From: Patescibacteria group bacterium
Lineage (GTDB): Bacteria > Patescibacteriota > Minisyncoccia > Phycocordibacterales > Phycocordibacteraceae
Length of the DNA stretch: 64,000 nt
Assembly: GCA_019744845.1 (NCBI GenBank)
Contig: JAIETW010000001.1
Location: forward strand, 482,859 to 546,858
Direction: 5' to 3'
Below, in pieces: positions 3,064 through 64,000 of this stretch (position 1 is its first letter; each line of letters opens with the position of its first letter). The notes below the pieces were generated by a model, which saw only the letters and a program-made list of their open reading frames with translations, did no database searches and was not told where the DNA came from. A program made the translations under genes and the position numbers.

Positions 3064-4314
3064 ATGTCTGCCAACACTCGTCGCATCCTCATCATCGCTG
3101 TCGCTGTCGCTGTGGTGATTGCAGTGCTTGGCATTATCTGGGCATTCTTTTTCCGTAGTGGTCCTGATCTTCAAGTGGGTGGGGGAGATCCGTTTGGTAA
3201 TGCAGGATCAGGCGATACGACCGGTGGTGATGTGCCCGGAGTACTAGATTCCGGTATTAACTACTCTAGTGATGCGGGGACACTCGTCGCACCACGCTTG
3301 GTGCGCATTACCGACGCGCCAGTCGCATACGGATCGGTTGCCATGTATATCCCGGAAGTGCCTGCAGCGACCACGACTGACGGAAGTGTTACTCCTGCAA
3401 TACCGCCAGACGTAGAGATTCGTTTCGTAGAACGCCAGAGCGGTAACGTCTATGCGTATCGTGCCTATGCCCGATCTCTTACCCGTCTTTCTAATCAGAC
3501 TGTGCCAGGAGTACACGAAGCGGTGTGGCTTTCAGATGGCTCACTCGCGTATCTCCGCTTTTTGACTTCAACCACTGGTACGGAAATACTCCAAACATAC
3601 GCATTGCCTGCCAACGGTGATGGTGGGTACTACCTAGAGCAGGGAATTGCCGACCTTGCCGCAACCAGCAGCAGATCCGTGATGTCGCTTGTCACAAGCT
3701 CGAGTGGGTCGGTCGCCACTGCCGCAAACGCAGACGGTACTGAGCCGCGCACCGCATTCTCTTCGGCTATCACTGATCTGGCAATTGCATTCTTTGGGCG
3801 CGGATATCTTGCCACCACTCGTGGTTCCGCAAGTTTGGATGGCTATTCCTTCTTTGTATCTGAGGGCGGGACGACGTGGAGTCGTATTGCAGGACCGCTG
3901 CGCGGACTCTCTGCGATTGGAAGCCCTGATGGCACCACCGCACTTATTTCATACGTAGACCGCGGTACGCTTACGACTCGTCTAGTAGACATGCAGACAC
4001 GTCTCGTGACCCCGCTTCCGATTGCAACCCTTACAGAAAAGTGTGCGTTCTCTGCCGACAGCACTGCGCTCTATTGTTCGGTGCCGACCAATACTGTAGG
4101 CACGCTCCCCGACGCCTGGTACCAGGGCACAGTCAGTTTTGCAGATCGTATTTGGAAGGTAGACCTTGCGTCTCGTGTGACATTCATGCTGCTTGACCCC
4201 ACAGAAGTCGCAGAGATACAGCTCGATGGGGTCTCGCTTGCGGTAGATCCTACCGATGACATTCTTACGTTCACAAACCGGACGGACGGTTCTCTCTGGG
4301 CCTACGATCTTTAA
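3064..4314 (+). CDS. Hypothetical membrane-anchored extracellular protein
   Basis: N-terminal TM anchor ILIIAVAVAVVIAVLGIIWAFFF followed by a 390-aa Thr/Ser/Gly-rich domain. Third gene of a secreted-protein operon. Confidence 0.5.
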   Translation: MSANTRRILIIAVAVAVVIAVLGIIWAFFFRSGPDLQVGGGDPFGNAGSGDTTGGDVPGVLDSGINYSSDAGTLVAPRLVRITDAPVAYGSVAMYIPEVPAATTTDGSVTPAIPPDVEIRFVERQSGNVYAYRAYARSLTRLSNQTVPGVHEAVWLSDGSLAYLRFLTSTTGTEILQTYALPANGDGGYYLEQGIADLAATSSRSVMSLVTSSSGSVATAANADGTEPRTAFSSAITDLAIAFFGRGYLATTRGSASLDGYSFFVSEGGTTWSRIAGPLRGLSAIGSPDGTTALISYVDRGTLTTRLVDMQTRLVTPLPIATLTEKCAFSADSTALYCSVPTNTVGTLPDAWYQGTVSFADRIWKVDLASRVTFMLLDPTEVAEIQLDGVSLAVDPTDDILTFTNRTDGSLWAYDL

Positions 4315-5639: not shown

Positions 5640-6986
5640 ATGAATAAGTACGACTCTCGTGAACTTTGGGAACATGTGCTCTCGCAGGTCGAACTTTCAA
5701 TCTCTCCCGCAAACTTCAATACATGGTTTCGTGAAAGCTCTATCGTAAAGATTGAGGACGGGATTGTGTACATTGGTGTGCCAAGTCAGTTCTTCCGAGA
5801 CTGGTACCTAAAGAAATTCCACCCACTTCTCCTCAAGATCATCCGTGGTGTCTCCTACGAGTTCCGCAATATTGAGTACATGATCGTGAAAGACGCGTCT
5901 CGCAAGCCTCGTACCGAGCGCAGACGCGAGCCAAGCATGGAAATGCCTCTTGATGAGTTCTATATCAACAAGAGCGACAATCTCAACCCTAAATATACGT
6001 TTGATACGTTTGTCGTAGGTTCTTTTAACGAGCTTGCCTACGCTGCTGCTCAAGCAATTCTTGCCCGGCCCGGCATCACCTACAACCCACTCTTCATTTA
6101 TGGAGACACCGGAAGAGGGAAGACCCACTTGATCCAGGCAATTGGTAACCAGTTCAAGAAACTGTATCCAAATCGCAAGGTGTTTTATTTGACCTCCGAG
6201 CGTTTCTCTGTGGATTACACCGATTCTATTGGAAGCGGGTCTGCGAATCGCTTCAAAGAGAAGTATCGTCAGTATGATTTGCTCATCATGGACGATGTGC
6301 AGTTCCTTGCGAAGAAAGAAAAGACCCAGGAAGAGCTTTTCCACCTTTTTAACTCGCTCCACGACAACAACAAGCAGATTATCTTCTCCTCAGACCGTTC
6401 TCCGCAGTCTATTCCTGACATCGCAGATCGCGTGCGCGGCCGCTTGTCCTCTGGAATGACGGTGGATATCGGGGAACCAGATACAGAGAGCCGTATGTCC
6501 ATTGTGCGCCGTAAGGCAGCCGCTAACGGGGTCACTCTAGGGGAGGATGTTATTGAATATGTGGCCACTTCAGTCTCTGGGTCTATCCGTGAGCTTGAAG
6601 GAGTCATAAATAGCGTGGTCTGTCACACCCAGGTGAAGGGCGTTCCTCCAGATCTTGCTGAGGTTCGCCAGTCCCTACGCGCCTTTTCACGGCCTACTAA
6701 GACAGTTTCTGTGAAGCATGTGGTCTCTAAGGTGGCTGAGTTCTACGGCATAGATGAAGAAAGCATCTATGAGAAGACTCGCCGTAGGGAAGTGGTACGT
6801 CCGCGCCAGGTAATCATGTATTTGCTCCGTGAGGACTTCTCGGTGTCCTACCCCACCATTGGTTCTAAGCTTGGGGGTCGTGATCACACCACCGTGATTC
6901 ACTCATGTGAGAAGGTGAAGCGTGAAATTGTGGATGATGCAGATCTTGCAAAAGAGATTCAGGACATTCGTGGATTGTTGGTATAG
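5640..6986 (+). CDS. dnaA: Chromosomal replication initiator DnaA
   Basis: Walker A GDTGRGKTHL. AAA+ sensor motifs. C-terminal domain IV (VRPRQVIMYLLRE...GGRDHTTVIHSCEKV). Likely start at MNKYDSRELWEHVL (ATG 5640) rather than the longer ORF-track start. Confidence 0.95.
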   Translation: MNKYDSRELWEHVLSQVELSISPANFNTWFRESSIVKIEDGIVYIGVPSQFFRDWYLKKFHPLLLKIIRGVSYEFRNIEYMIVKDASRKPRTERRREPSMEMPLDEFYINKSDNLNPKYTFDTFVVGSFNELAYAAAQAILARPGITYNPLFIYGDTGRGKTHLIQAIGNQFKKLYPNRKVFYLTSERFSVDYTDSIGSGSANRFKEKYRQYDLLIMDDVQFLAKKEKTQEELFHLFNSLHDNNKQIIFSSDRSPQSIPDIADRVRGRLSSGMTVDIGEPDTESRMSIVRRKAAANGVTLGEDVIEYVATSVSGSIRELEGVINSVVCHTQVKGVPPDLAEVRQSLRAFSRPTKTVSVKHVVSKVAEFYGIDEESIYEKTRRREVVRPRQVIMYLLREDFSVSYPTIGSKLGGRDHTTVIHSCEKVKREIVDDADLAKEIQDIRGLLV

Positions 6987-7230
6987 TTGTTGATAAGGGT
7001 ATGGAAAAGTCACAGATAGTCATGTGGGTAAAGAACGGACAACCTCGGGTTCGTAGTGTACGAAGAAAAAACTCCCGCGTGATATCCGCATGTCGTGGCA
7101 CGTTCTCCACAGCTTCTCAGTTCATCACGTGCCAGAACACGTCGTACTTGCTTCGTGATTTTCGTTTTCCACGTATCGACAAGACTAATAAGTAATTATG
7201 ATTATTAATTTAAATAAAAAAGAATTCAGA
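6987..7230. promoter_or_regulatory. Candidate oriC (DnaA-box cluster plus AT-rich unwinding element) between dnaA and dnaN
   Basis: DnaA-box-like 9-mers TGTGGGTAA (7023-7031, 8/9 to TGTGGATAA), TTCTCCACA (7103-7111, 8/9 to TTATCCACA) and TTTTCCACG (7165-7173, 7/9). A ~50-bp stretch of >80% AT (7177-7230) runs into the dnaN start. Confidence 0.45.
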
Positions 7231-8298
7231 GATGTGGTGGGGATTGTATCTCGCTTTGCAGATAAGAGATCGTCGACACTTCCAACTCTTTCCGGTATCG
7301 CACTCATTGCAGGAGATGATGGGATTAAAGTTCGCGCCACTAATCTTGAGACGGGAGTCGATATGTTTGTAGAGGGAACGATTAAAACTCCTGGCGCGAT
7401 TGTCATTCCTTCTTCAGTCCTTCGTGATATCTCTTCTTCCTTCTCTGATTCAGGTCAGGTGACTATTGAACACTCTGGAGATACGGCGATTATTACAGCC
7501 GGAACCGCAAAGAGTACAGTGAAGACGCTTCCGTTTGATGATTTTCCTTCTCTACCACTTCCAGAGAACCCTAAAACCACTTTCCGTATTCCAGGAGCCT
7601 CTCTCGTATCCTTGATCAATACTGTTGCGTCTTGCGCATCTACTTCTACTATTCGTCCTGAACTTGCCGCAGTTCTTCTTTCTTCCGAGGGAGGGCATGT
7701 GAAGGCGGTTGCTACCGACTCATTCCGTCTTGCTGAGAAGAAGATTTCTATTAAAGAGAAGATGAATAACTTCTCTATCCTTATTCCTGCACGTAATGCG
7801 CTAGATCTTGCACAGACCATTCCTGATACGGATGTAGAGGTACGTGTAGATGAACACCAGTGTGCCGTCGTGTGGGGTAAGAACACCCTCACCACACGCC
7901 TTGTAGCAGCTGCATACCCTGATTACACGCAGATCATTCCTAAGTCCTTCACCTCAGAGGCTACGGTGCTTCGTAAGGACTTTGAGGGGGCCTTGAAGCG
8001 CACTGCAGTGTTCTCCGACTCCTTCCAGAAAGTGCGCCTTGGGTTTGATGTGAAGGGGAAGAAGCTTGCCCTTTCTGCACACAATGCAGACGTGGGAGAG
8101 GCGGTAGAGCCACTTGCGTCCTCTCTTACTGGGGATTCTCTAGAACTATCCTTTAACTTCCGCTACCTTCAGACCCCCCTTCCTTTGTTTACCTCAGAGA
8201 GTATTACGCTATCTGCAGGAGGAATTGGGCGCCCGCTCGTCATTAAGGGTGTAGGGGATCAGTCGTTCTTGTATCTGGTGATGCCAATGAATCAGTAG
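7198..8298 (+). CDS. dnaN: DNA polymerase III beta subunit (sliding clamp)
   Basis: 366 aa immediately downstream of dnaA. Three-domain clamp-like profile. The gene order is canonical. Confidence 0.9.
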   Translation: MIINLNKKEFRDVVGIVSRFADKRSSTLPTLSGIALIAGDDGIKVRATNLETGVDMFVEGTIKTPGAIVIPSSVLRDISSSFSDSGQVTIEHSGDTAIITAGTAKSTVKTLPFDDFPSLPLPENPKTTFRIPGASLVSLINTVASCASTSTIRPELAAVLLSSEGGHVKAVATDSFRLAEKKISIKEKMNNFSILIPARNALDLAQTIPDTDVEVRVDEHQCAVVWGKNTLTTRLVAAAYPDYTQIIPKSFTSEATVLRKDFEGALKRTAVFSDSFQKVRLGFDVKGKKLALSAHNADVGEAVEPLASSLTGDSLELSFNFRYLQTPLPLFTSESITLSAGGIGRPLVIKGVGDQSFLYLVMPMNQ

Positions 8299-22353: not shown

Positions 22354-22611
22354 ATGGCAATCACGAAATCAGCAAAGAAAGCGCACCGCGCCTCCCTTAA
22401 CAAGAAGGTGTTTAACCTTCGTCGCAAGCGTGCACTTAACGATTCCACCAAGGAGGTTAAGAAGCTCATTGCAGAAGGAAAGGGAAAGGATGCGGCTGCG
22501 TCACTTTCCGCTGCCTACAAGGCAATTGATAAGGCAGCAAAGCGCGGAGTGATCAAGAAAAACACCGCCGCTCGTAAGAAGTCCCGCCTCGCAAAGGCAC
22601 TCGCAAAATAA
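22354..22611 (+). CDS. rpsT: 30S ribosomal protein S20
   Basis: MAITKSAKKAHRASLNKKVFNLRRKRAL...AARKKSRLAKALAK. The internal ATG at 22354 gives the canonical 85-aa S20. The longer ORF-track version overlaps ruvA and is rejected. Confidence 0.9.
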   Translation: MAITKSAKKAHRASLNKKVFNLRRKRALNDSTKEVKKLIAEGKGKDAAASLSAAYKAIDKAAKRGVIKKNTAARKKSRLAKALAK

Positions 22612-22614
22612 GAA

Positions 22615-22637
22615 GCCGCCCCGAGGGGCGGTTTTTT
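22615..22637 (+). terminator. Rho-independent terminator of rpsT
   Basis: CCGCCCC-GA-GGGGCGG hairpin followed by TTTTTT. Confidence 0.7.
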
Positions 22638-22641
22638 CATG

Positions 22642-22713
22642 TGCTCTCGGCAGGAATCGAACCTGCATTTCCTCCTTCGGAGGGAGATGTCCTATCCATT
22701 GAACGACGAGAGC
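22642..22713 (-). tRNA. tRNA-Arg (anticodon CCG)
   Basis: Reverse complement GCTCTCGTCGTTCAATGGATAGGACATCTCCCTCCGAAGGAGGAAATGCAGGTTCGATTCCTGCCGAGAGCA. 7-bp acceptor, D-arm, anticodon loop CTCCGAA, T-arm GCAGG-TTCGATT-CCTGC. Confidence 0.85.
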
Positions 22714-22853
22714 GTTCCGGGGACTATAGCACTATTTACAGTGGTGCTCTCAAGCAAGTAAGGGCACTTTTCTGGAGATTGTTTGGAAGTCCTATTTAGT
22801 ATCAATTCAAACTTGCTTATTATATGGCTTGGGAATTGAACATTTTTTAACCC

Positions 22854-22893
22854 CTTATAAATAATTGACGTATTTATAAGGATGTTATACATT
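22854..22893 (+). promoter_or_regulatory. Promoter with operator: perfect 10-bp inverted repeat overlapping the -35 hexamer
   Basis: CTTATAAATA (22854-22863), 7-bp spacer ATTGACG, TATTTATAAG (22871-22880). TTGACG (22865-22870) is a near-consensus -35. TATACA/TACATT lies 15-17 bp downstream as -10. The transcript would start at or just before ATG 22900 (leaderless). Confidence 0.45.
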
Positions 22894-22899
22894 TACAAT

Positions 22900-23130
22900 A
22901 TGAGTAAACCTAAAGATCAGGAAAATTCACGGGACAGATTTAAACGTCTTGCCACACAGCGCACCAACAACGTTTTGCAGAAATTAAAAGTTTTAGGCAA
23001 CTGCTCAAATCGCAGTGTGTATGAATACGATGAGGAAGATATCTCAAAAATATTCTCCGAAATTGAAAAGCGTGTAAGAGAAACCAAGGCCAAGTTTCAC
23101 TTTTCCAAAAGGAGTGTTTTTAAGCTCTAA
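22900..23130 (+). CDS. Islet gene 1: small basic helical protein (76-82 aa), hypothetical
   Basis: MSKPKDQENSRDRFKRLATQRTNNVLQKLKVLGN.... Lys/Arg-rich, no TM segment. The ORF track starts at 22882; ATG 22900 fits the predicted promoter better. First gene of the operon, 3 nt before gene 2. Confidence 0.45.
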   Translation: MSKPKDQENSRDRFKRLATQRTNNVLQKLKVLGNCSNRSVYEYDEEDISKIFSEIEKRVRETKAKFHFSKRSVFKL

Positions 23131-23133
23131 ACT

Positions 23134-23787
23134 ATGACCGACCATAAAAAATCTATTCTTGCCCTTAAGCCCTTTCCGGCAAAATCTTACGCCGAAGTAG
23201 ATCTTGATCGGCTAGCGGTCTATGCACTTTATACGTTAGACCAAAAACACCTGCCCTTGTATTTCGAATATGCAGCAGTGGCCCTTTTTAGATTGTTCCC
23301 TAAGAAGTTCTCCATGGCTAACTTTAGTCGTTACCCTGATACTTATAGGATCAACAACTCACTGAGACGGCTTGTGGGTGGGCTGGGAACAAAAAGTGAA
23401 AAAGCGGGGTGGGTATCAGGAAGCGTTGAGCATGGGTTCCGAATGACCGATGTAGGGATAGAGATTGCCAAACAGATGGATTTATTACTAAAAGCTCCTG
23501 CCGGAAATAAGCCTGTTAAGCCTCTAGTTTCAAAAACCAGAGGAAGATTTTCTAGCGATGACGTGAAAGAAATTAGAGCATCAGGTGCGTTTGATAAGTG
23601 GCAGACAGGGAAAGAAATTAATGGCCATGAGTTCCTTGCTTTTCTTAAGGCGCCGCCCTATACCCCGAAACACCTCTTGGCAGCCCACCTAACTCGTCTT
23701 AAGGATTCTGCACTAACTGCCAAAGACGGTGTAGTAATAAAGTTTCTTGCTCACATGGAACAAAAATTTAAGGACCTCATAAACTAA
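23134..23787 (+). CDS. Islet gene 2: hypothetical protein (217 aa)
   Basis: Tightly coupled on both sides (3-nt and 2-nt gaps). No recognisable motif. AT-rich codon usage matches the islet. Confidence 0.5.
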   Translation: MTDHKKSILALKPFPAKSYAEVDLDRLAVYALYTLDQKHLPLYFEYAAVALFRLFPKKFSMANFSRYPDTYRINNSLRRLVGGLGTKSEKAGWVSGSVEHGFRMTDVGIEIAKQMDLLLKAPAGNKPVKPLVSKTRGRFSSDDVKEIRASGAFDKWQTGKEINGHEFLAFLKAPPYTPKHLLAAHLTRLKDSALTAKDGVVIKFLAHMEQKFKDLIN

Positions 23788-23789
23788 CT

Positions 23790-26609
23790 ATGTCTGAAAT
23801 AGCTGTCCAAATTGCATCCCGTTATATCCGCAGGAAACAGTCGGATGCAGTCGGTAAGAACCTACTAAAAACCTTAACTGAACCGATAACTAACTCTGAC
23901 GATAGCTATAGAAGAATTGCAGAGTCCGAAAAGGATTTCGCTAGCGCAGTCTTTCCAATAACAATATTTGTAGATAAGCCGGGGCGCCTAATTCGCATTA
24001 TTGATGAAGCTGAAGGGATGACAGAGAAGGAGCTTGAAACAAAGTTTAAAGAGTACGGTGCCGCCAAAAGTGGTGCTTACGAAGGCTTTAGTTCAAGGGG
24101 AATATTTGGGCAAGGTCTTTCGGACGTGCTTTTCTACCATCGTGAAGGAAAAATCAAGACAATCAAAAATGAAGAAGCTACGGTATGTAGCTTTTATTGG
24201 AAAAAAGAAAAGCAATATATTCAAGTTGAAAAGCAAACAAAAGATATAAATAGAATTGCAAGAGAGTGGTCGTTACCGTGTAAGCACGGAACGGTTATTG
24301 AGTTTGTATTAGACAACACAACACTACACGATTACGAAAATCTCGTGAAAAAATTGAGTGTTTTTTATATGTTACGCCTCATCAATAATAGTGACAGGCG
24401 TACCATCAAGCTTGTATATAAAGAGCGGAGCGCTACCAAAAAAGCTCAGATTAAGTATGAGTTTCCCAAGGGAGACCTGGTAGACTCAAGGCAGTTTCCA
24501 TTTAATTTTGAGGGGCACGATCCGGTGACAGTTGACGTGCAGTTATACAAATCTGACGTCTCTCTTAAAACAGTAGGTGAAGAAAGGGAAAATGGCTTAC
24601 TTGTATTTGACAATAAAGAAGCTGTATATGATCAAACGTTTTTTGGGCTAGACGATCTACCAGGTGCGGACAAGTTTTTTGGCACAATGAAACTTACAGG
24701 TGCTCGGGAGATTATTTTGGAAAAAATTAACCATCCGAAACATCCAGAAGAGATTTTGTCGGATACGCGTGATGGTTTCAATAAGCAGCACGAATTCTAT
24801 AAACAGCTTCAACTGATTGTTAAAGACTGGCTCTATCCAATTTTAAATGAAGAAAGAAGGCGAAAAACGAATGACGGGATTTCTGAGTCAACGATTGAAA
24901 AACATCAAAAGGCTTTTGAGGAATTAAACAAACTTTACAAGCAACTTACAGGAGACGAGACAAGTGGAACAATAAAAGCAAAGAAAAAACTGCGCCCAAT
25001 CGGTGGAATCCAGTTTGCAAGAAACCACGTCTCAATAACGGTTGGGAAAAGATACGGACTGCAATTACTGATTGATACTAACGTTGTAAAGATTGGCACT
25101 AAGGTTAAGTTAAAGGCGGCTAAGGGGGTAGTTGGGTTTTCCCCCGGAGAATTTGTTGTAGAGGAAGCACGTCCTGACGAAAACGGAGTTGCTGTCAAAA
25201 CTATAATTTTAACTGGACCTAAGGCACGTACGGCTGATACTCTCCATGCGAATGCAGGCAAGCACTCTGCTTCCGTTGTTGTAGGGGTAATTTCGGAGGA
25301 AGTGGCTTATCCAGAGGACGGGATGGTTTTTAGTCCTGAGTACGTCAGAACTATATCTCACAAAGATAGTGTAGCGACTTTGTATATTGATTTAACCAAA
25401 ATCAAGATAGGAACAAAAATACGCTTTGTAAGCACTAACGACACTATTCAACTAAAAAGAACAACAATTTCTGTTCCACGCAGAATGAGAACAGCAACCG
25501 GAACAAAGTTGGCAAAAATTCAAGTTGAGTTTCAAGGAAATAAAAATGACGAAACAGGAATTATTGAAGCTTCGTTCGGCAAATACTTAACTCAATGCAG
25601 GGTTGATATTAAAGAAAAAAAGAGGATCCCCCCAGGAGGATCTATAGGAAAGTTTAAGGACTGGGATTTTGATGACGGAGTCCCCCCTCATTTGCAAACT
25701 ACCTATGATCCAATGGAAGGGAGTCCCACTCAGGGATATATATTGATAAATACTTCCCACCCGATCAATCGGCACTACTTTGGTGAAAGCCCAACGAAAA
25801 AAGAGGCGCTTAAGTCACATAAGGCGCAACTCTACCTTGCGGAGCTAATACTTAATGAGTCGCTAGGAGGAATGATAAATGAAGCGTATCAAAAAGGAGT
25901 AATCCCTACAAACTACGGCGCTGGCATAGACATTCCTGTCTACGTTGCACAAAAAAAATATGAACTCGGCGAGCTAATTTATGATTTTTTTGTTGAACCG
26001 GAACCAACGGGTCTTGAATCCAGAAGAACTGAAAAACTCCAGGAGGCAAAACAGAAACACGATATGTCTGAAGAAGAACTCCTAGAAAATATGGACGATA
26101 GACCAAGAACAATGGTTGAGATGTACTTTGGTTTAGGTGAACAGAGAAAGCACACCCTTGAAGAAATTGCTTCAAGATTTGGGGTAACAAGGGAAAGAAT
26201 TAGACAGATCATCAATAAAGCATTGGCTCCGAGTTTTGGGGAGAAGTCCGATCCGTACGTGACTTCAGAGGATGAGGGAGTAGATACAAGAGATTATCTT
26301 GCTGAGGAAGAAAAACGCCTAATGCTTGAGGCGGAAAAAATAGTGGAAGTTAGCGCAAGGATGTACGGCGTGAAAGCATCTGACTTGTACAGTAAGACAA
26401 GAGAGGCAAATATTGTTGTACCGCGGCACATAGCTATGTATTTATTACGAACAAAAATGGGCCTTTCCTTTCCATCTATTGGGAAACAGTTTGATCGTGA
26501 CCACACTACAATTATGCATGCGTGTAACAAGATCTCTCTAATGATTCAAAAAAACCAAAAGATAAACAGAAGAGTGGATAAGATACTCAGTCTTGCTGAA
26601 GTTAAATAA
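23790..26609 (+). CDS. Islet gene 3: 939-aa chimeric protein with GHKL (Hsp90/MORC-like) ATPase N-domain, sigma-70 region-4 HTH and C-terminal DnaA domain IV
   Basis: Bergerat-fold motifs EPITNSDDS (N box), IIDEAEGMTEKEL (G1), AAKSG and GIFGQGLSDVLF (G2), cf. Hsp90 DTGIGMTK..IAKSG..GQFGVGFYS. Residues ~765-815 MVEMYFGLGEQRKHTLEEIASRFGVTRERIRQIINKAL are a textbook sigma-70 region 4.1/4.2. Residues ~842-939 (YGVKASDLYSKTREANIVVPRHIAMYLLRTKMGLSFPSIGKQFDRDHTTIMHACNKI) align at ~45% identity to domain IV of this genome's own DnaA (YGIDEESIYEKTRRREVVRPRQVIMYLLREDFSVSYPTIGSKLGGRDHTTVIHSCEKV). Confidence 0.7.
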   Translation: MSEIAVQIASRYIRRKQSDAVGKNLLKTLTEPITNSDDSYRRIAESEKDFASAVFPITIFVDKPGRLIRIIDEAEGMTEKELETKFKEYGAAKSGAYEGFSSRGIFGQGLSDVLFYHREGKIKTIKNEEATVCSFYWKKEKQYIQVEKQTKDINRIAREWSLPCKHGTVIEFVLDNTTLHDYENLVKKLSVFYMLRLINNSDRRTIKLVYKERSATKKAQIKYEFPKGDLVDSRQFPFNFEGHDPVTVDVQLYKSDVSLKTVGEERENGLLVFDNKEAVYDQTFFGLDDLPGADKFFGTMKLTGAREIILEKINHPKHPEEILSDTRDGFNKQHEFYKQLQLIVKDWLYPILNEERRRKTNDGISESTIEKHQKAFEELNKLYKQLTGDETSGTIKAKKKLRPIGGIQFARNHVSITVGKRYGLQLLIDTNVVKIGTKVKLKAAKGVVGFSPGEFVVEEARPDENGVAVKTIILTGPKARTADTLHANAGKHSASVVVGVISEEVAYPEDGMVFSPEYVRTISHKDSVATLYIDLTKIKIGTKIRFVSTNDTIQLKRTTISVPRRMRTATGTKLAKIQVEFQGNKNDETGIIEASFGKYLTQCRVDIKEKKRIPPGGSIGKFKDWDFDDGVPPHLQTTYDPMEGSPTQGYILINTSHPINRHYFGESPTKKEALKSHKAQLYLAELILNESLGGMINEAYQKGVIPTNYGAGIDIPVYVAQKKYELGELIYDFFVEPEPTGLESRRTEKLQEAKQKHDMSEEELLENMDDRPRTMVEMYFGLGEQRKHTLEEIASRFGVTRERIRQIINKALAPSFGEKSDPYVTSEDEGVDTRDYLAEEEKRLMLEAEKIVEVSARMYGVKASDLYSKTREANIVVPRHIAMYLLRTKMGLSFPSIGKQFDRDHTTIMHACNKISLMIQKNQKINRRVDKILSLAEVK

Positions 26610-26712
26610 ACTACCCCAACTGTTCGGCAGATAGAGTGAACTAATATCACGCTTTGCCCGGTTGCCTGTGTGGCCATTGAACTGTTCTATTGCCTCCCCA
26701 GGAGGTCTCTGG

Positions 26713-26784
26713 TGCTCTCGGTAGGAATCGAACCTACATTACCAGCTCCGCAAGCTAGCGTCCTATCCATTGAACGACGAGAGC
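26713..26784 (-). tRNA. tRNA-Arg (anticodon GCG)
   Basis: Reverse complement GCTCTCGTCGTTCAATGGATAGGACGCTAGCTTGCGGAGCTGGTAATGTAGGTTCGATTCCTACCGAGAGCA. Its 5' half is identical to the tRNA-Arg(CCG) at 22642-22713. Anticodon loop TTGCGGA. Confidence 0.8.
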
Positions 26785-31064: not shown

Positions 31065-32150
31065 ATGAAAGGAACGTTCGCACGGTTCGCACGAGTGGAG
31101 TTTGCTCCTCCACCGTATTTGTCGCTTCCGACTGCGGGCGTAGATATCTCCACGAGCGGTATCAAGATTGCATTTTTGAAAGAACACGGGCATGGTCTTG
31201 AACTTGCGTCCTACGGTGAAGCACCACTCGCACTCGGCGCTATTGATGGAGGAGAGATTGCTGATCGCGCCGCAGTGGTAGAAGGACTCAAGATGCTTGC
31301 GAAGAAGCACGGCATCCGCTTTGCGAACATTGCACTTCCTGAATCTCGTGGGTATCTCTTTGAGGCGGGAGTAGAAGGAACGACTCCAAACGACTGGCGC
31401 ACCTCTATAGAACAGCGCATTGATGAATATGTCCCACTCCCTCCTGCAGAAGTGATGTTTGACCTCGTGCCTATAAACGAAAAGAAGGAAGACAAGATAC
31501 AGGTTGCCGGAATCGGATACGCACGTCGTGTCGTAGAAGAGTCGGTATCTGCACTAGAAGAGGCGGGGATTACCGTACGCGCAGTAGAGAGTGAGAACTT
31601 TGCACTTCCTCGCGCACTTCTTCCTCACGGAGATACGGAGACCGTGCTCGTGATTGATCTTGGGAAAACCACCACGAAGCTTCTCGTGGTGACTGAGCGT
31701 GTACCTCGTCTTGCGACGACGCTTGATATTGGTGGACACGCACTCACCCTTGCAGTCGTCAAGCACTTCGGGGTGTCAGAAGAAGAAGCACGTCGCATTA
31801 AGGCAGAGAAGGGAATTGTCTCTGGCACCGAGAATGATGAGTACATTGCTGCCATGCTCTCCACTGTGTCGGTGATCCGCGAAGAGATCGGACGCCGTCT
31901 TGAATACTGGCAAAGCCATGCTGCAGAAGACGGGCATCAGCCAGTGACGCGCGCAGTCTTGGTAGGAGGGAACGCAACAATACGCGGACTCCCTGAGTAT
32001 CTTGAATCAGGACTCAAGATACCGGTGGCGCTTGGAGATGTGTTTGTAAACCTCGCATCTCGCGACGATTGGTTGCCACCCGTTGATTACATGCAGTCAC
32101 TTGCGTACGGCACCGCGATAGGTCTTGCACTTCGTGAATACGTCCCATAG
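31065..32150 (+). CDS. pilM: Type IV pilus assembly protein PilM
   Basis: Actin-like ATPase-fold protein of 361 aa. Followed by PilN- and PilO-like genes. GIDISTSGIKIAFL N-terminal pattern. Confidence 0.75.
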   Translation: MKGTFARFARVEFAPPPYLSLPTAGVDISTSGIKIAFLKEHGHGLELASYGEAPLALGAIDGGEIADRAAVVEGLKMLAKKHGIRFANIALPESRGYLFEAGVEGTTPNDWRTSIEQRIDEYVPLPPAEVMFDLVPINEKKEDKIQVAGIGYARRVVEESVSALEEAGITVRAVESENFALPRALLPHGDTETVLVIDLGKTTTKLLVVTERVPRLATTLDIGGHALTLAVVKHFGVSEEEARRIKAEKGIVSGTENDEYIAAMLSTVSVIREEIGRRLEYWQSHAAEDGHQPVTRAVLVGGNATIRGLPEYLESGLKIPVALGDVFVNLASRDDWLPPVDYMQSLAYGTAIGLALREYVP

Positions 32151-61804: not shown

Positions 61805-62011
61805 ATGGCATACCAGGCAGAACGCGAAGAGGTTGAGCACAAGAAGTTTGTGGACTACAAGGACATTCCGTACCTTCGTCTTTTCACCAACCCACACGCA
61901 AAGATGCTTTCTAAGAAGCGCACGGGACTCAATGCAGCCCAGCAGCGCAAAGTAGCGATGGCAATCAAGCGAGCCCGCTACATGGGACTCCTCCCATACC
62001 TCGCAGCCTAA
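61805..62011 (+). CDS. rpsR: 30S ribosomal protein S18
   Basis: FVDYKDIPYLRLFTNPHAKMLSKKRTGLNAAQQRKVAMAIKRARYMGLLPY matches the S18 consensus. Canonical rpsF-ssb-rpsR order. Confidence 0.9.
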   Translation: MAYQAEREEVEHKKFVDYKDIPYLRLFTNPHAKMLSKKRTGLNAAQQRKVAMAIKRARYMGLLPYLAA

Positions 62012-62019
62012 CGAACCAA

Positions 62020-62039
62020 CCGCCCGAAAGGGCGGTTTT
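62020..62039. terminator. Rho-independent (bidirectional) terminator
   Basis: CCGCCC-GAAA-GGGCGG hairpin followed by TTTT. Separates rpsR from the convergent minus-strand genes. Confidence 0.6.
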
Positions 62040-62478
62040 ACGTATTACGTTCTGAGCGCTCTATTAATTCTGATGCACCTAAAAGAGCGAGGGCTAAGAG
62101 TCCGTATAGTGCTGAATATAGAACTGCAAAGCCACGGGTATCAAGAAGAGTAAAACCAAACCCCCCCATACCGTATCCGAGCTCCGGGATAGTTATCATA
62201 AGAATAGAGACAATTACTCCGTATACGACAGAAAACACAATCCATCGCCGGTATGTCTTAGGAGAGCTAAAGAAGGCTAGTATAGAGAAAGTTAAAAGCG
62301 TTGCAGAAAGAGAAAGCAGGGCTGCAGCATACGGATACCACAGAGGCGACGCGCAAACCGTGACGCCGTCTCCTCTGTCGTGAGTTTGGCAGAAGCCAAA
62401 CCACTCTGGCCATATAGAGTACACGGCAAATAGTGTGCTGATAGACGCAATGATAATTGGTATAACCTTAAGTTTCAT
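62038..62478 (-). CDS. Hypothetical integral membrane protein (low-GC segment)
   Basis: 146 aa with 4 TM helices. Lower GC than the core genome. Confidence 0.45.
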   Translation of the reverse strand: MKLKVIPIIIASISTLFAVYSIWPEWFGFCQTHDRGDGVTVCASPLWYPYAAALLSLSATLLTFSILAFFSSPKTYRRWIVFSVVYGVIVSILMITIPELGYGMGGFGFTLLDTRGFAVLYSALYGLLALALLGASELIERSERNT

Positions 62479-62485
62479 ATGGCCA

Positions 62486-63964
62486 TTATACTTCCTTCCA
62501 GAAAGTGAGCAGGCCTAGTATCCACCAAATGAAGGACCTTATCGCTTCTATGAAAAACTTGAAGACAGAATTCACTGCGTCGTAAACAGAAGCAGTTTGA
62601 CTTTGGTGTACTGGATCCTCTAGTTCTGTAGAGACTTCAATATCAAATGGTGTTGGAGAGAGTGCTTTCTTTATAGTAGGAACGACTGCTGAAGGTCCTA
62701 ACAAGTCGCCATCAGGCTGTGCTGCCTGGACTACAATTTCTGTGTTGGATTCTTCAGGTTTTCGTTCCGTCTGCATTACTCTAGAAGAGTGTTTGATAGG
62801 GGCTTCTATAAACGGAGTTTCATAAATAACCGTTTCATTTTCTTCAAAAGCAATTGTAATGTCAGTTTCTCCATCACCGTCTTCGTCTAACGATAATGGG
62901 GAAATGGAACTCGCATCATGATCAATTGTCGTAGAAGCATAAGTTCGGGGAGTTACTGGGAGATTTGTAATTACAGAAGCTTCATTTTTACTCTCAGAAT
63001 CTACAATTTTTATTGTAAATACACCGTCATCTATGCCGTATATAGAGACTTCGTATTCGTTGGTAGCAGGAGCAATTATATATTTACCCTCACCACCGAA
63101 TTTCACCGCTGAGTTTGGTATATCTTCTATAATGTAATAAAGGTCGCTGTCGGGGACTGGAAAGATTCCGGTCTTCTTTCCTTCTTTGTTTGTGAGGGAG
63201 ATAATTACTGGAGAATGCACGCTTACAGAAATAAGATCCTGTTCTACGTTCGGTTCTTGAGAAGAAAAAAGACTTTCGTTATAGGACTCTTTGGTTCCGA
63301 AAAGATACAAGAAATATTCATGGATTCGTGAGGATTCAGTAAGGTTTTCATGTTTCCGATATTCTTGGAAGTCGTTACTTAAACGGTAAAGATTAAAATA
63401 AACACCACTTTCCATAAAAAGAGCACTAGGTGCTACTACTGTGTCGTCACCAGTGAATGTTGTTATAGGTTCGTAATCTATTGTTTCATGGAGACCGCAA
63501 GAAAGAACTCCAGAAGGACATGAGTAGCTGCTTTCTGTGTAGTATTTAGCTCCAGTCACGGTTATGTTTCCCCAACCAGCAATTTCATTAATAGAAACGT
63601 CTTCGGGGGCTTCCCAGCTATCAAGCAAGACGTGAGTGTCCGCTGCTCGTGTGATCAAGGATAAAGAAAGAGGGTGTGGGGTTTCTTCATCATTTATAGC
63701 GGGAGGTGTCCTAGTGAATGGGTCATTCAACATAAACGCCAACGACATAAAAGAATCCTTTATTTCTTTCCCTAAAGCTGCCACATAGATGTCTGTTGCT
63801 GTTCCAGATTCAAATATTGCTAGGGGGTTAGAAAGAAGCGAAAAATATGAATCCGAAGGGAGTAGCGCATAAGCGCCCGGCATAGTCATTGCGCTCCGAC
63901 GTGCCTCTCCGTTAAGAGCAATATAGGGAGGAACGATATTATGTCCATGGAGAAGCCCTAGCAT
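62486..63964 (-). CDS. Hypothetical large secreted/surface protein (3' portion; continues beyond the window)
   Basis: Open for at least 492 aa, with no start codon inside the window. C-terminal TM anchor (IWWILGLLTFW). Asp/Glu/Thr-rich, Cys pairs, low GC. Confidence 0.45.
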   Translation of the reverse strand: MLGLLHGHNIVPPYIALNGEARRSAMTMPGAYALLPSDSYFSLLSNPLAIFESGTATDIYVAALGKEIKDSFMSLAFMLNDPFTRTPPAINDEETPHPLSLSLITRAADTHVLLDSWEAPEDVSINEIAGWGNITVTGAKYYTESSYSCPSGVLSCGLHETIDYEPITTFTGDDTVVAPSALFMESGVYFNLYRLSNDFQEYRKHENLTESSRIHEYFLYLFGTKESYNESLFSSQEPNVEQDLISVSVHSPVIISLTNKEGKKTGIFPVPDSDLYYIIEDIPNSAVKFGGEGKYIIAPATNEYEVSIYGIDDGVFTIKIVDSESKNEASVITNLPVTPRTYASTTIDHDASSISPLSLDEDGDGETDITIAFEENETVIYETPFIEAPIKHSSRVMQTERKPEESNTEIVVQAAQPDGDLLGPSAVVPTIKKALSPTPFDIEVSTELEDPVHQSQTASVYDAVNSVFKFFIEAIRSFIWWILGLLTFWKEV

Positions 63965-64000
63965 CCCTTGAGGAGTTCCTACCTGAGGAGTTCCGACGAG

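Follow-up and report, generated by a model that had tools for sequence, protein, structure and literature searches.

The C proteins of restriction-modification systems, such as C.PvuII and C.AhdI, are encoded by a small first gene with a leaderless mRNA and autoregulate their expression through palindromic boxes at the -35 element; they activate and repress alike. The cI mRNA of phage lambda is described as leaderless in one published account (PMC10491246). Autoregulation of defence operons is exemplified by the WYL regulators (PMC9122588), and CapK, a small anti-sigma-type kinase of the GHKL fold, is encoded together with a DNA-binding repressor, CapS being a STAS-domain protein (PMC13373217). 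Here we analyse 64,000 nucleotides (nt) from the genome of a Patescibacteria group bacterium (contig JAIETW010000001.1, positions 482,859–546,858; referred to below as the window), which contain a three-gene cassette headed by a promoter whose -35 element is enclosed in a perfect inverted repeat, or dyad. On comparison with about 40 related cassettes, we favour the reading that this dyad is an operator for a symmetric dimeric protein, placed over the -35 of the only sigma-70-type promoter of the cassette.

The dyad at 22853–22881 reads CCTTATAAATA-ATTGACG-TATTTATAAGG: 29 base pairs (bp), with 11/11 positions of the arms paired around a 7-bp spacer. A first-pass annotation of the sequence had described a perfect 10/10 inverted repeat here, which is correct and understated, as one further C:G pair extends it to 11/11; if the 5-bp spacer TTGAC is taken instead, 11/12 positions pair. 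The left arm, at -47 to -37 from the A of the gene 1 start codon (ATG 22900), joins a half-site shared by the family, CCTTA (22853–22857), to the core TAAATA. In 3000 first-order Markov simulations of the 186-nt, 34% GC intergenic region, perfect arms reached 10 bp or more in 0.5% of cases and 11 bp or more in 0/3000. Over the whole window, arms of at least 11 bp are found at five loci against 0.2 expected from Markov simulation, and the other four are hairpins, G+C-richer and of different composition, at least some of which are terminator-like. The first-pass annotation had also proposed a search of the cassette islet for additional copies of the half-site CTTATAAATA; there is no second copy anywhere in the 64-kb window. 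Around the perfect repeat we observe a longer, imperfect dyad (22835–22899), with 29-nt arms that are 72% complementary and a centre that coincides with the -35; it spans ATTGAAC to TACAAT, immediately 5' of the ATG.

The locus was compared with a set of 66 loci (L numbers below), which two collection scans and nine contig look-ups yielded together. The gene 1-2-3 order is kept in Patescibacteria, Saccharibacteria included, and in one Thermoleophilia genome; genes 2-3 are also present in Bathyarchaeia and Armatimonadota. Anchoring on the 5-nt spacer recovered the dyad in six more loci (L063, L014, L058, L017, L065 and L015); the seven sequences, that of the window included, were aligned without gaps. 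The dyad of L063, CCCTTGTAAATAC-TTGAC-GTATTTACAAGGG, has perfect 13-bp arms, and in L014, L058, L017 and L065 the dyad is located at the same place with 8–10 of 15 positions paired. In L015 the arms recur with AGCAC between them, immediately 3' of the -10 that belongs to a different promoter; the spacer there is no longer TTGAC, and what this locus keeps is the arms, not the -35. The core TAAATA-N7-TATTTA is invariant in 7/7 dyads, although the gene 3 proteins of these loci are only about 61–72% identical. One pair that is A:T in the window is G:C in four other loci, a compensatory change, and paired cells make up 83.5% of the seven dyads as compared to 33–48% when the partner arm is slid. The comparison thereby supports selection on the symmetry of a dyad that encloses the -35.

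Perfect inverted repeats with arms of at least 7 bp are present at the core promoter of 15/36 loci (4.1 expected), and those with arms of at least 10 bp at 5/36 (0.2 expected). A second type of dyad lies between the -35 and the -10 and has a compensatory change of its own (TCCTTA/TAAGGA in L066 versus ATCCTTG/CAAGGAT in L001), and a third type, TAAGGATA-TGC-TATCCTTA, lies over the -10 in L021, L022, L052 and L053. The common denominator is a yAAGG element 9–13 nt after the -35, paired with CCTTr up- or downstream; in the window it is TAAGG (22877–22881), the outer end of the right arm. Core promoters of the family contain AAGG 26 times (5.7 expected) and CCTT 31 times (5.1 expected), an about 5-fold enrichment, and the two are found in the same promoter in 17/37 loci (0.7 expected). 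In L006, a Saccharibacteria relative, we observe three self-complementary copies of TTTACGTAAA, 21 and 20 bp apart (4035–4100), the last two of which flank the TTGACA of the cassette promoter; this has the look of a multi-site operator of different sequence.

The promoter that the dyad encloses has the layout of a sigma-70-type promoter: a -35 TTGACG that matches TTGACA at 5/6 positions, a 17-bp spacer and the TAnnnT-type -10 TACATT, together scoring 9/12 in a promoter scan. Upstream of gene 1, nearly all related cassettes show a -35 close to TTGACA, a 16–18-bp spacer and a TAnnnT hexamer; 29 related promoters share the layout of the window promoter, and in the orthologues the -10 is TACCCT, TACACT or TATCCT at the same place. 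The near-consensus -35 and correctly spaced -10 of the first-pass annotation are borne out by this conserved geometry. The candidate TACAAT (22894–22899) was rejected as the -10, since it lies 23 bp past the -35 and would place the start of the transcript beyond the only usable start codon.

The -10 ends 6 nt before the ATG of gene 1, inside the 5–9 nt that characterise leaderless starts, and there is no Shine-Dalgarno sequence. The same 6-nt gap is found in ten related loci (L001, L014, L021, L056, L057, L058, L063, L064, L065 and L066), nine of which have independent promoters, and the gap is 7–10 nt in L016, L003, L009, L038 and L051. Among the long open reading frames of the host in the window, the distance from a -10-like hexamer to the ATG likewise peaks at 6 nt; such a hexamer lies 5–9 nt 5' of the ATG in 15/57 of these frames, and a Shine-Dalgarno-like motif is present in just 13/57. 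Because ten related cassettes share the 6-nt spacing, which is also the mode among host genes, gene 1 is most likely leaderless, with an mRNA that would start at A22900 or no more than two bases from it. This conclusion, already proposed in the first pass, is well supported by the comparison, and by the same measure a leaderless gene 1 is ordinary in the present genome, which appears to be largely leaderless. The host hexamers are TATACT/TATAAT-like, about half of them with a TGn extension (examples at 31065, 36492, 45170, 46024, 48405 and 62038). A recognisable -35 is mostly missing from the host promoters of the window, whereas cassette promoters nearly always have TTGACA.

The public annotation likewise starts gene 1 at ATG 22900, giving 76 amino acids (aa). 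An alternative start at ATG 22882 was rejected: it lies inside the promoter, and the homologues and the public annotation agree on 76 aa, with variation among homologue N-termini confined to about 10 residues. In L063 (161–176) an internal GTG had been called as the start of gene 1 (71 aa); an in-frame ATG 6 nt past the -10, at the position kept in relatives, marks this as a miscalled leaderless start. With many leaderless starts in the present genome, such cases matter for gene calling. In L017, L018, L033 and L050 we also observe a second conserved promoter-like element, cTCCCTTGACAnaGAAATyCATATAGATTAAACTGG, at about -90 to -60 from gene 1 and upstream of the proximal promoter, which suggests tandem promoters in this sub-lineage.

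The three genes of the cassette are on the same strand and tightly packed, with intergenic gaps of 3 and 2 nt. A word-limited homologue search for gene 1 returned 635 proteins, the best 120 of which are all at least 70% identical and 72–89 aa long, with one of 103 aa. The structure model of the gene 1 protein consists of two long helices (pLDDT 71), for which neither a fold search nor a profile search of the PDB found a match among solved structures. Identification as a helix-turn-helix (HTH) or ribbon-helix-helix repressor found no support in Pfam, NCBIfam, PHROGs, the PDB profile search or the fold search. The first-pass annotation had pointed to the gene 1 protein as a possible repressor, which sits poorly with a two-helix model lacking a fold match and a sequence that barely varies; it stays a conceivable binder, but nothing marks it as DNA-binding.

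The gene 2 protein (model pLDDT 83) has no match in Pfam or NCBIfam and no sequence match in the PDB. Its N-terminus superposes on the DNA-binding domain of DtxR/IdeR/MntR with probability 1.0 and a root-mean-square deviation (rmsd) of 2.9 Å over 91 columns (E about 0.1, 10–16% identity), and DNA complexes of this family (1DDN, 1C0W and 7B24) are in the fold list. The putative recognition helix would lie at about residues 67–81, YPDTYRINNSLRRL. The metal-binding/dimerisation domain of DtxR/MntR is unmatched in gene 2, long alignments having an rmsd of about 16 Å.

Gene 3 encodes the largest product. Its N-terminus matches HATPase_c_3 at 21.6 bits in the protein of the window, just under the 25-bit cut-off; 24/28 of its homologues match with E values no higher than 0.01 (best 2.2e-6), and the invariant motifs ExxxNxxD and DxGxG are present. 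By its Bergerat-fold motifs, as scored with the HATPase_c/HATPase_c_3 profiles, the gene 3 family belongs to the GHKL ATPases. Its sigma-70 region 4 has the same recognition helix, VTRERIRQI, as Thermus SigA, and its DnaA domain IV retains the PR...P...DHTT..H pattern of E. coli DnaA, with canonical box-contact residues. Recent capture of this domain from the host DnaA was rejected, identity being just 34%. Literature searches for the domain combination of gene 3 returned nothing relevant.

Table 1. Features of the dyad, the cassette and its flanks (positions are those of the window).
Feature	Positions	Strand	Description and basis
Left arm CCTTATAAATA	22853–22863	.	Perfect repeat; chance test; orthologous dyads in L063, L014, L058, L017, L065 and L015
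Spacer ATTGACG	22864–22870	+	Holds the -35 TTGACG (22865–22870); promoter scan; TTGACA-like -35 in nearly all related cassettes
Right arm TATTTATAAGG	22871–22881	.	Perfect repeat; half-site enrichment
-10 TACATT	22888–22893	+	17 bp past the -35; 6 nt to ATG 22900; promoter scan
Gene 1	22900–23130	+	76 aa, small, basic, helical, highly conserved; homologues, public annotation, structure model
Gene 2	23134–23787	+	217 aa, modelled N-terminal winged helix and C-terminal helical domain; structure model, fold search
Gene 3	23790–26609	+	939 aa; GHKL-type ATPase N-terminus, sigma-70 region 4 (residues 764–812), DnaA domain IV (residues 849–915)
tRNA-Arg(CCG)	22641–22713	-	Left flank of the cassette
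tRNA-Arg(GCG)	26710–26784	-	Right flank of the cassette; 83% identical to the left tRNA gene

Which protein would bind the dyad can be approached through a distant clade of the family, in which gene 2 has a different helix (YPDAARVNRTLLH) and gene 3, at about 740 aa, is without both HTH domains. ATGTAG/CTACAT repeats mark the core promoter in 3/5 loci of this clade with a recognisable gene 1: inverted over the -10 in L008, as two direct copies on either side of the -35 in L009 and as a single copy in L038. The AAGG/CCTT clade shows hardly any variation in the putative recognition helix of gene 2, YPDTNRINKALRR (in the window YPDTYRINNSLRR). As the half-site changes with the cassette clade, a cassette-encoded binder is favoured, and as repeats are found at the promoters of gene 3 relatives that lack the HTH domains, the C-terminal HTH of gene 3 is not needed for them.

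The dyad has what is expected of an operator: it overlaps the core promoter, and its symmetry is kept in orthologues, compensatory changes included (with modest support from shuffling). From the sequence comparison we judge it quite likely that it is a functional protein-binding operator, put the chance that its binder is encoded in the operon at about even, and propose gene 2 specifically, acting via its modelled DtxR-like winged helix, as a tentative candidate. The first-pass annotation had read the site as the autoregulatory operator of an HTH repressor. Of this, a dyad that appears to be under selection, that encloses the -35 and for which a binder from the operon is favoured holds up; the suggestion of gene 1 or gene 3 as the binder does not, and gene 2, whose modelled N-terminal half resembles the DtxR/IdeR/MntR DNA-binding domain, had been overlooked.

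In the mechanism that we propose, RNA polymerase holoenzyme would use TTGACG/TACATT and start at or next to A22900, and the 70S ribosome would initiate on the 5'-terminal AUG of gene 1, with genes 2 and 3 presumably translated by coupling across the 3- and 2-nt gaps. One of the cassette proteins, most probably that of gene 2, would sit on both arms as a dimer, block access of sigma region 4 to the -35 and so keep the operon low, i.e. negative autoregulation. In L015 the same site lies over the start point, where it would block initiation; repression fits both layouts.

Several points weigh against this reading. All of its support is comparative. The covariation of the seven dyads is 0.198 as compared to 0.138 in shuffles, a value reached by 20/500 of these; with seven kin sequences this is modest, and we regard it as supportive, not decisive. 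The loci share ancestry, so the enrichment counts given above are not independent events. The AAGG half-site occurs at differing spacings in the three dyad arrangements, which is awkward for one rigid dimer, and the inner TAAATA/TATTTA is present in one sub-lineage only, with a gene 2 helix that is almost invariant across sub-lineages. The fold match of gene 2 is weak (E about 0.1) and covers the winged helix only, and winged helices may serve protein-protein contact: MukE-MukF is in the same fold list, with low probability. Finally, a regulator encoded by the host is a conceivable alternative binder.

The rival that survives best, though we consider it unlikely, is autoregulation by gene 3, with its region 4 contesting the spacer TTGACG with RNA polymerase and its DnaA domain IV, or a second GHKL protomer, on the flanks. 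All 28 aligned gene 3 homologues have region 4 and DnaA domain IV, the DNA-contact motifs of both are intact in gene 3 of the window, TTGACA is nearly universal in cassette promoters in a host that mostly does without a recognisable -35, and DnaA boxes lie 8–10 nt 5' of the -35 in L004, L052, L053, L047 and L005. Other observations speak against it: a perfect TTGACA surrounded by repeats is retained in L008, L009 and L038, whose gene 3 is devoid of both HTH domains, in L015 the arms persist around AGCAC, and one asymmetric hexamer does not account for symmetric arms of 11–13 bp. Nor does the arm pass for a DnaA box: TTATAAATA agrees with TTATCCACA at 6/9 positions and is missing CCACA, while the contact residues of the domain are canonical, and the window has no DnaA box with at most one mismatch within 130 nt upstream. 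The sigma-70 region-4 module that the first pass had seen in gene 3 is a real domain and a poor candidate for binding the arms, given the repeats kept by relatives without it; contact between region 4 and TTGACG may be a rival to operator binding by another cassette protein or an additional layer on top of it.

Binding of the dyad by a host regulator or nucleoid protein, which would wire the cassette into host physiology, we regard as improbable. It would sit well with an inner TAAATA/TATTTA that is limited to a single sub-lineage in spite of nearly constant genes 1 and 2, and with the different genomic neighbourhoods in which the cassettes reside. However, promoter and dyad move with the cassette into other hosts and contexts, the homology starting at the left arm, the type of half-site tracks the cassette clade, and the half-site is missing from the rest of the window.

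That the symmetry has no regulatory role, being a by-product of an A+T-rich promoter (a UP-like tract) or a DNA or RNA hairpin at the edge of the cassette, such as a terminator or a recombination site, is highly improbable: the left arm is indeed A+T-rich at the position of an UP element, the dyad marks the left limit of cassette homology, and folded as RNA it reaches -10.9 kcal/mol (z-score -4.9), but compensatory changes preserve a symmetry that lies far above composition-matched chance, the dyad is upstream of the predicted start and would be untranscribed from its own promoter, there is no Rfam match (a scan of 22600–23200 with Rfam 15 gave only the tRNA and chance-level matches), and the cassette has no recombinase. 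An intrinsic terminator was rejected separately: the stem is A+T-rich, there is no T-run on either strand, and the site is absent from the terminator scan.

As for the DnaA boxes of the relatives, canonical or one-mismatch copies of TTATCCACA are located exactly 10 nt 5' of the -35 in L004, L052, L053 and L047 and 8 nt 5' of it in L005, and in L034 a reversed box lies about 6 nt upstream. In total, 36 upstream regions contain 7 boxes as compared to 1.5 expected, in 6 loci that all belong to the clade with a full-length(-like) gene 3. As a long shot, gene 3 could be a GHKL ATPase with heads borrowed from the two master initiators of the cell, sigma region 4 and DnaA domain IV, that acts at -35s and DnaA boxes, the cassette then being a new module for interference with, or surveillance of, replication and transcription, found mainly in Patescibacteria. 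If so, a DnaA box 10 bp 5' of a -35 would be a composite site readable by the tandem heads of gene 3, which would load on, or compete at, -35s and DnaA boxes, with the host origin or invading replicons among the conceivable targets, while the winged-helix protein of gene 2 would keep the operon shut via the AAGG/CCTT dyads.

In the genome, the low-GC cassette (39–45% as compared to 50–54% in the surroundings) lies between two minus-strand tRNA-Arg genes, as though inserted into a tRNA pair. Insertion targeted to a tRNA was rejected, as tRNA adjacency is inconsistent across related loci, and domain and profile searches of the three genes found no recombinase among their products. The dyad was also considered, and rejected, as the promoter of the adjoining tRNA-Arg(CCG): this gene is served by an extended -10 of its own on the minus strand, TGcTATAGT (22731–22723), which lies about 120 nt away and leaves the dyad outside the tRNA promoter. 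Between TGcTATAGT and the mature 5' end of the tRNA are 9 nt, implying a precursor leader just a few nucleotides long. The neighbouring genes are housekeeping genes (rpsT, ruvA and guaA), with dnaA and dnaN 16 kb off. Between dnaA (5640–6986) and dnaN (7198–8298) we observe four one-mismatch DnaA boxes in 180 nt (6929–7111) at a local dip in GC; judged by these sequence features, the chromosomal origin probably lies here, some 16 kb away from the cassette. At the right end of the window (62001–64000) GC falls again, to 42–44% from about 52%.

The first pass had taken the tight regulation as typical of toxic or defence modules, and none of our searches lends support to this. PADLOC v2, run on the cassette proteins, matched only gene 3 region 4 to MzaA, plus a marginal mad1 match to the same HTH stretch (E 0.02), and left gene 1, gene 2 and the ATPase part of gene 3 unmatched; PHROG matches were limited to the two HTH domains of gene 3; and no relatives of the cassette were found on viral contigs or plasmids. 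A known defence system was rejected on these grounds, the HTH matches being at the level of domains.

What the locus offers is a conserved, uncharacterised cassette of uncultivated Patescibacteria and a few other phyla, whose large protein joins a GHKL ATPase, a sigma region 4 and a DnaA domain IV. Of practical value are the defined 29-bp site, a half-site code that differs by clade (yAAGG/CCTTr versus ATGTAG) and the small number of candidate binders.

How does the cassette compare with the systems described? The likeness to MzaA (PDLC02203, NF041931) consists of the match of gene 3 residues 755–812 to its sigma-70 region 4 part, at 50 bits against a cut-off of 800; only this domain is shared, and no other Mza component is present. 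Like toxin-antitoxin and defence operons, the cassette would form a short transcription unit whose product represses it at a promoter palindrome. Set beside CapS/CapK, however, gene 3 is a 939-aa protein of the HATPase_c_3 type and gene 2 a modelled winged helix, and no toxin or defence domain was found in the cassette; the analogy was rejected as the proteins differ and the likeness is conceptual only.

The lambda cI/PRM-OR region shares with the cassette a leaderless first gene and dyad operators that overlap the core promoter, but there is no phage context here and the first gene does not encode an HTH repressor. Moreover, lambda OR has three tandem operators, whereas the window has one dyad (and the L006 relative three sites, 20–21 bp apart). 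The DtxR/IdeR/MntR proteins act as dimers on palindromes of about 19 bp over promoters, and the model of gene 2 places a winged helix that fits their DNA-binding domain, if weakly (E about 0.1), at its N-terminus; beyond it gene 2 has a different, helical domain as its C-terminal half, and the metal/dimerisation domain is unmatched. The C-box circuits resemble the cassette in being mobile, in having a leaderless small first gene, in placing a palindromic operator next to or over the -35 and, on our reading, in autoregulation. They differ in that gene 1 is without an Xre-type HTH, the half-sites are unrelated and only repression is predicted here; with no HTH in gene 1 and no methyltransferase or endonuclease domains in the cassette, it does not qualify as a restriction-modification controller. 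The cassette belongs to none of the families compared, and its operator and leaderless first gene, as read from the comparison, form a textbook arrangement.

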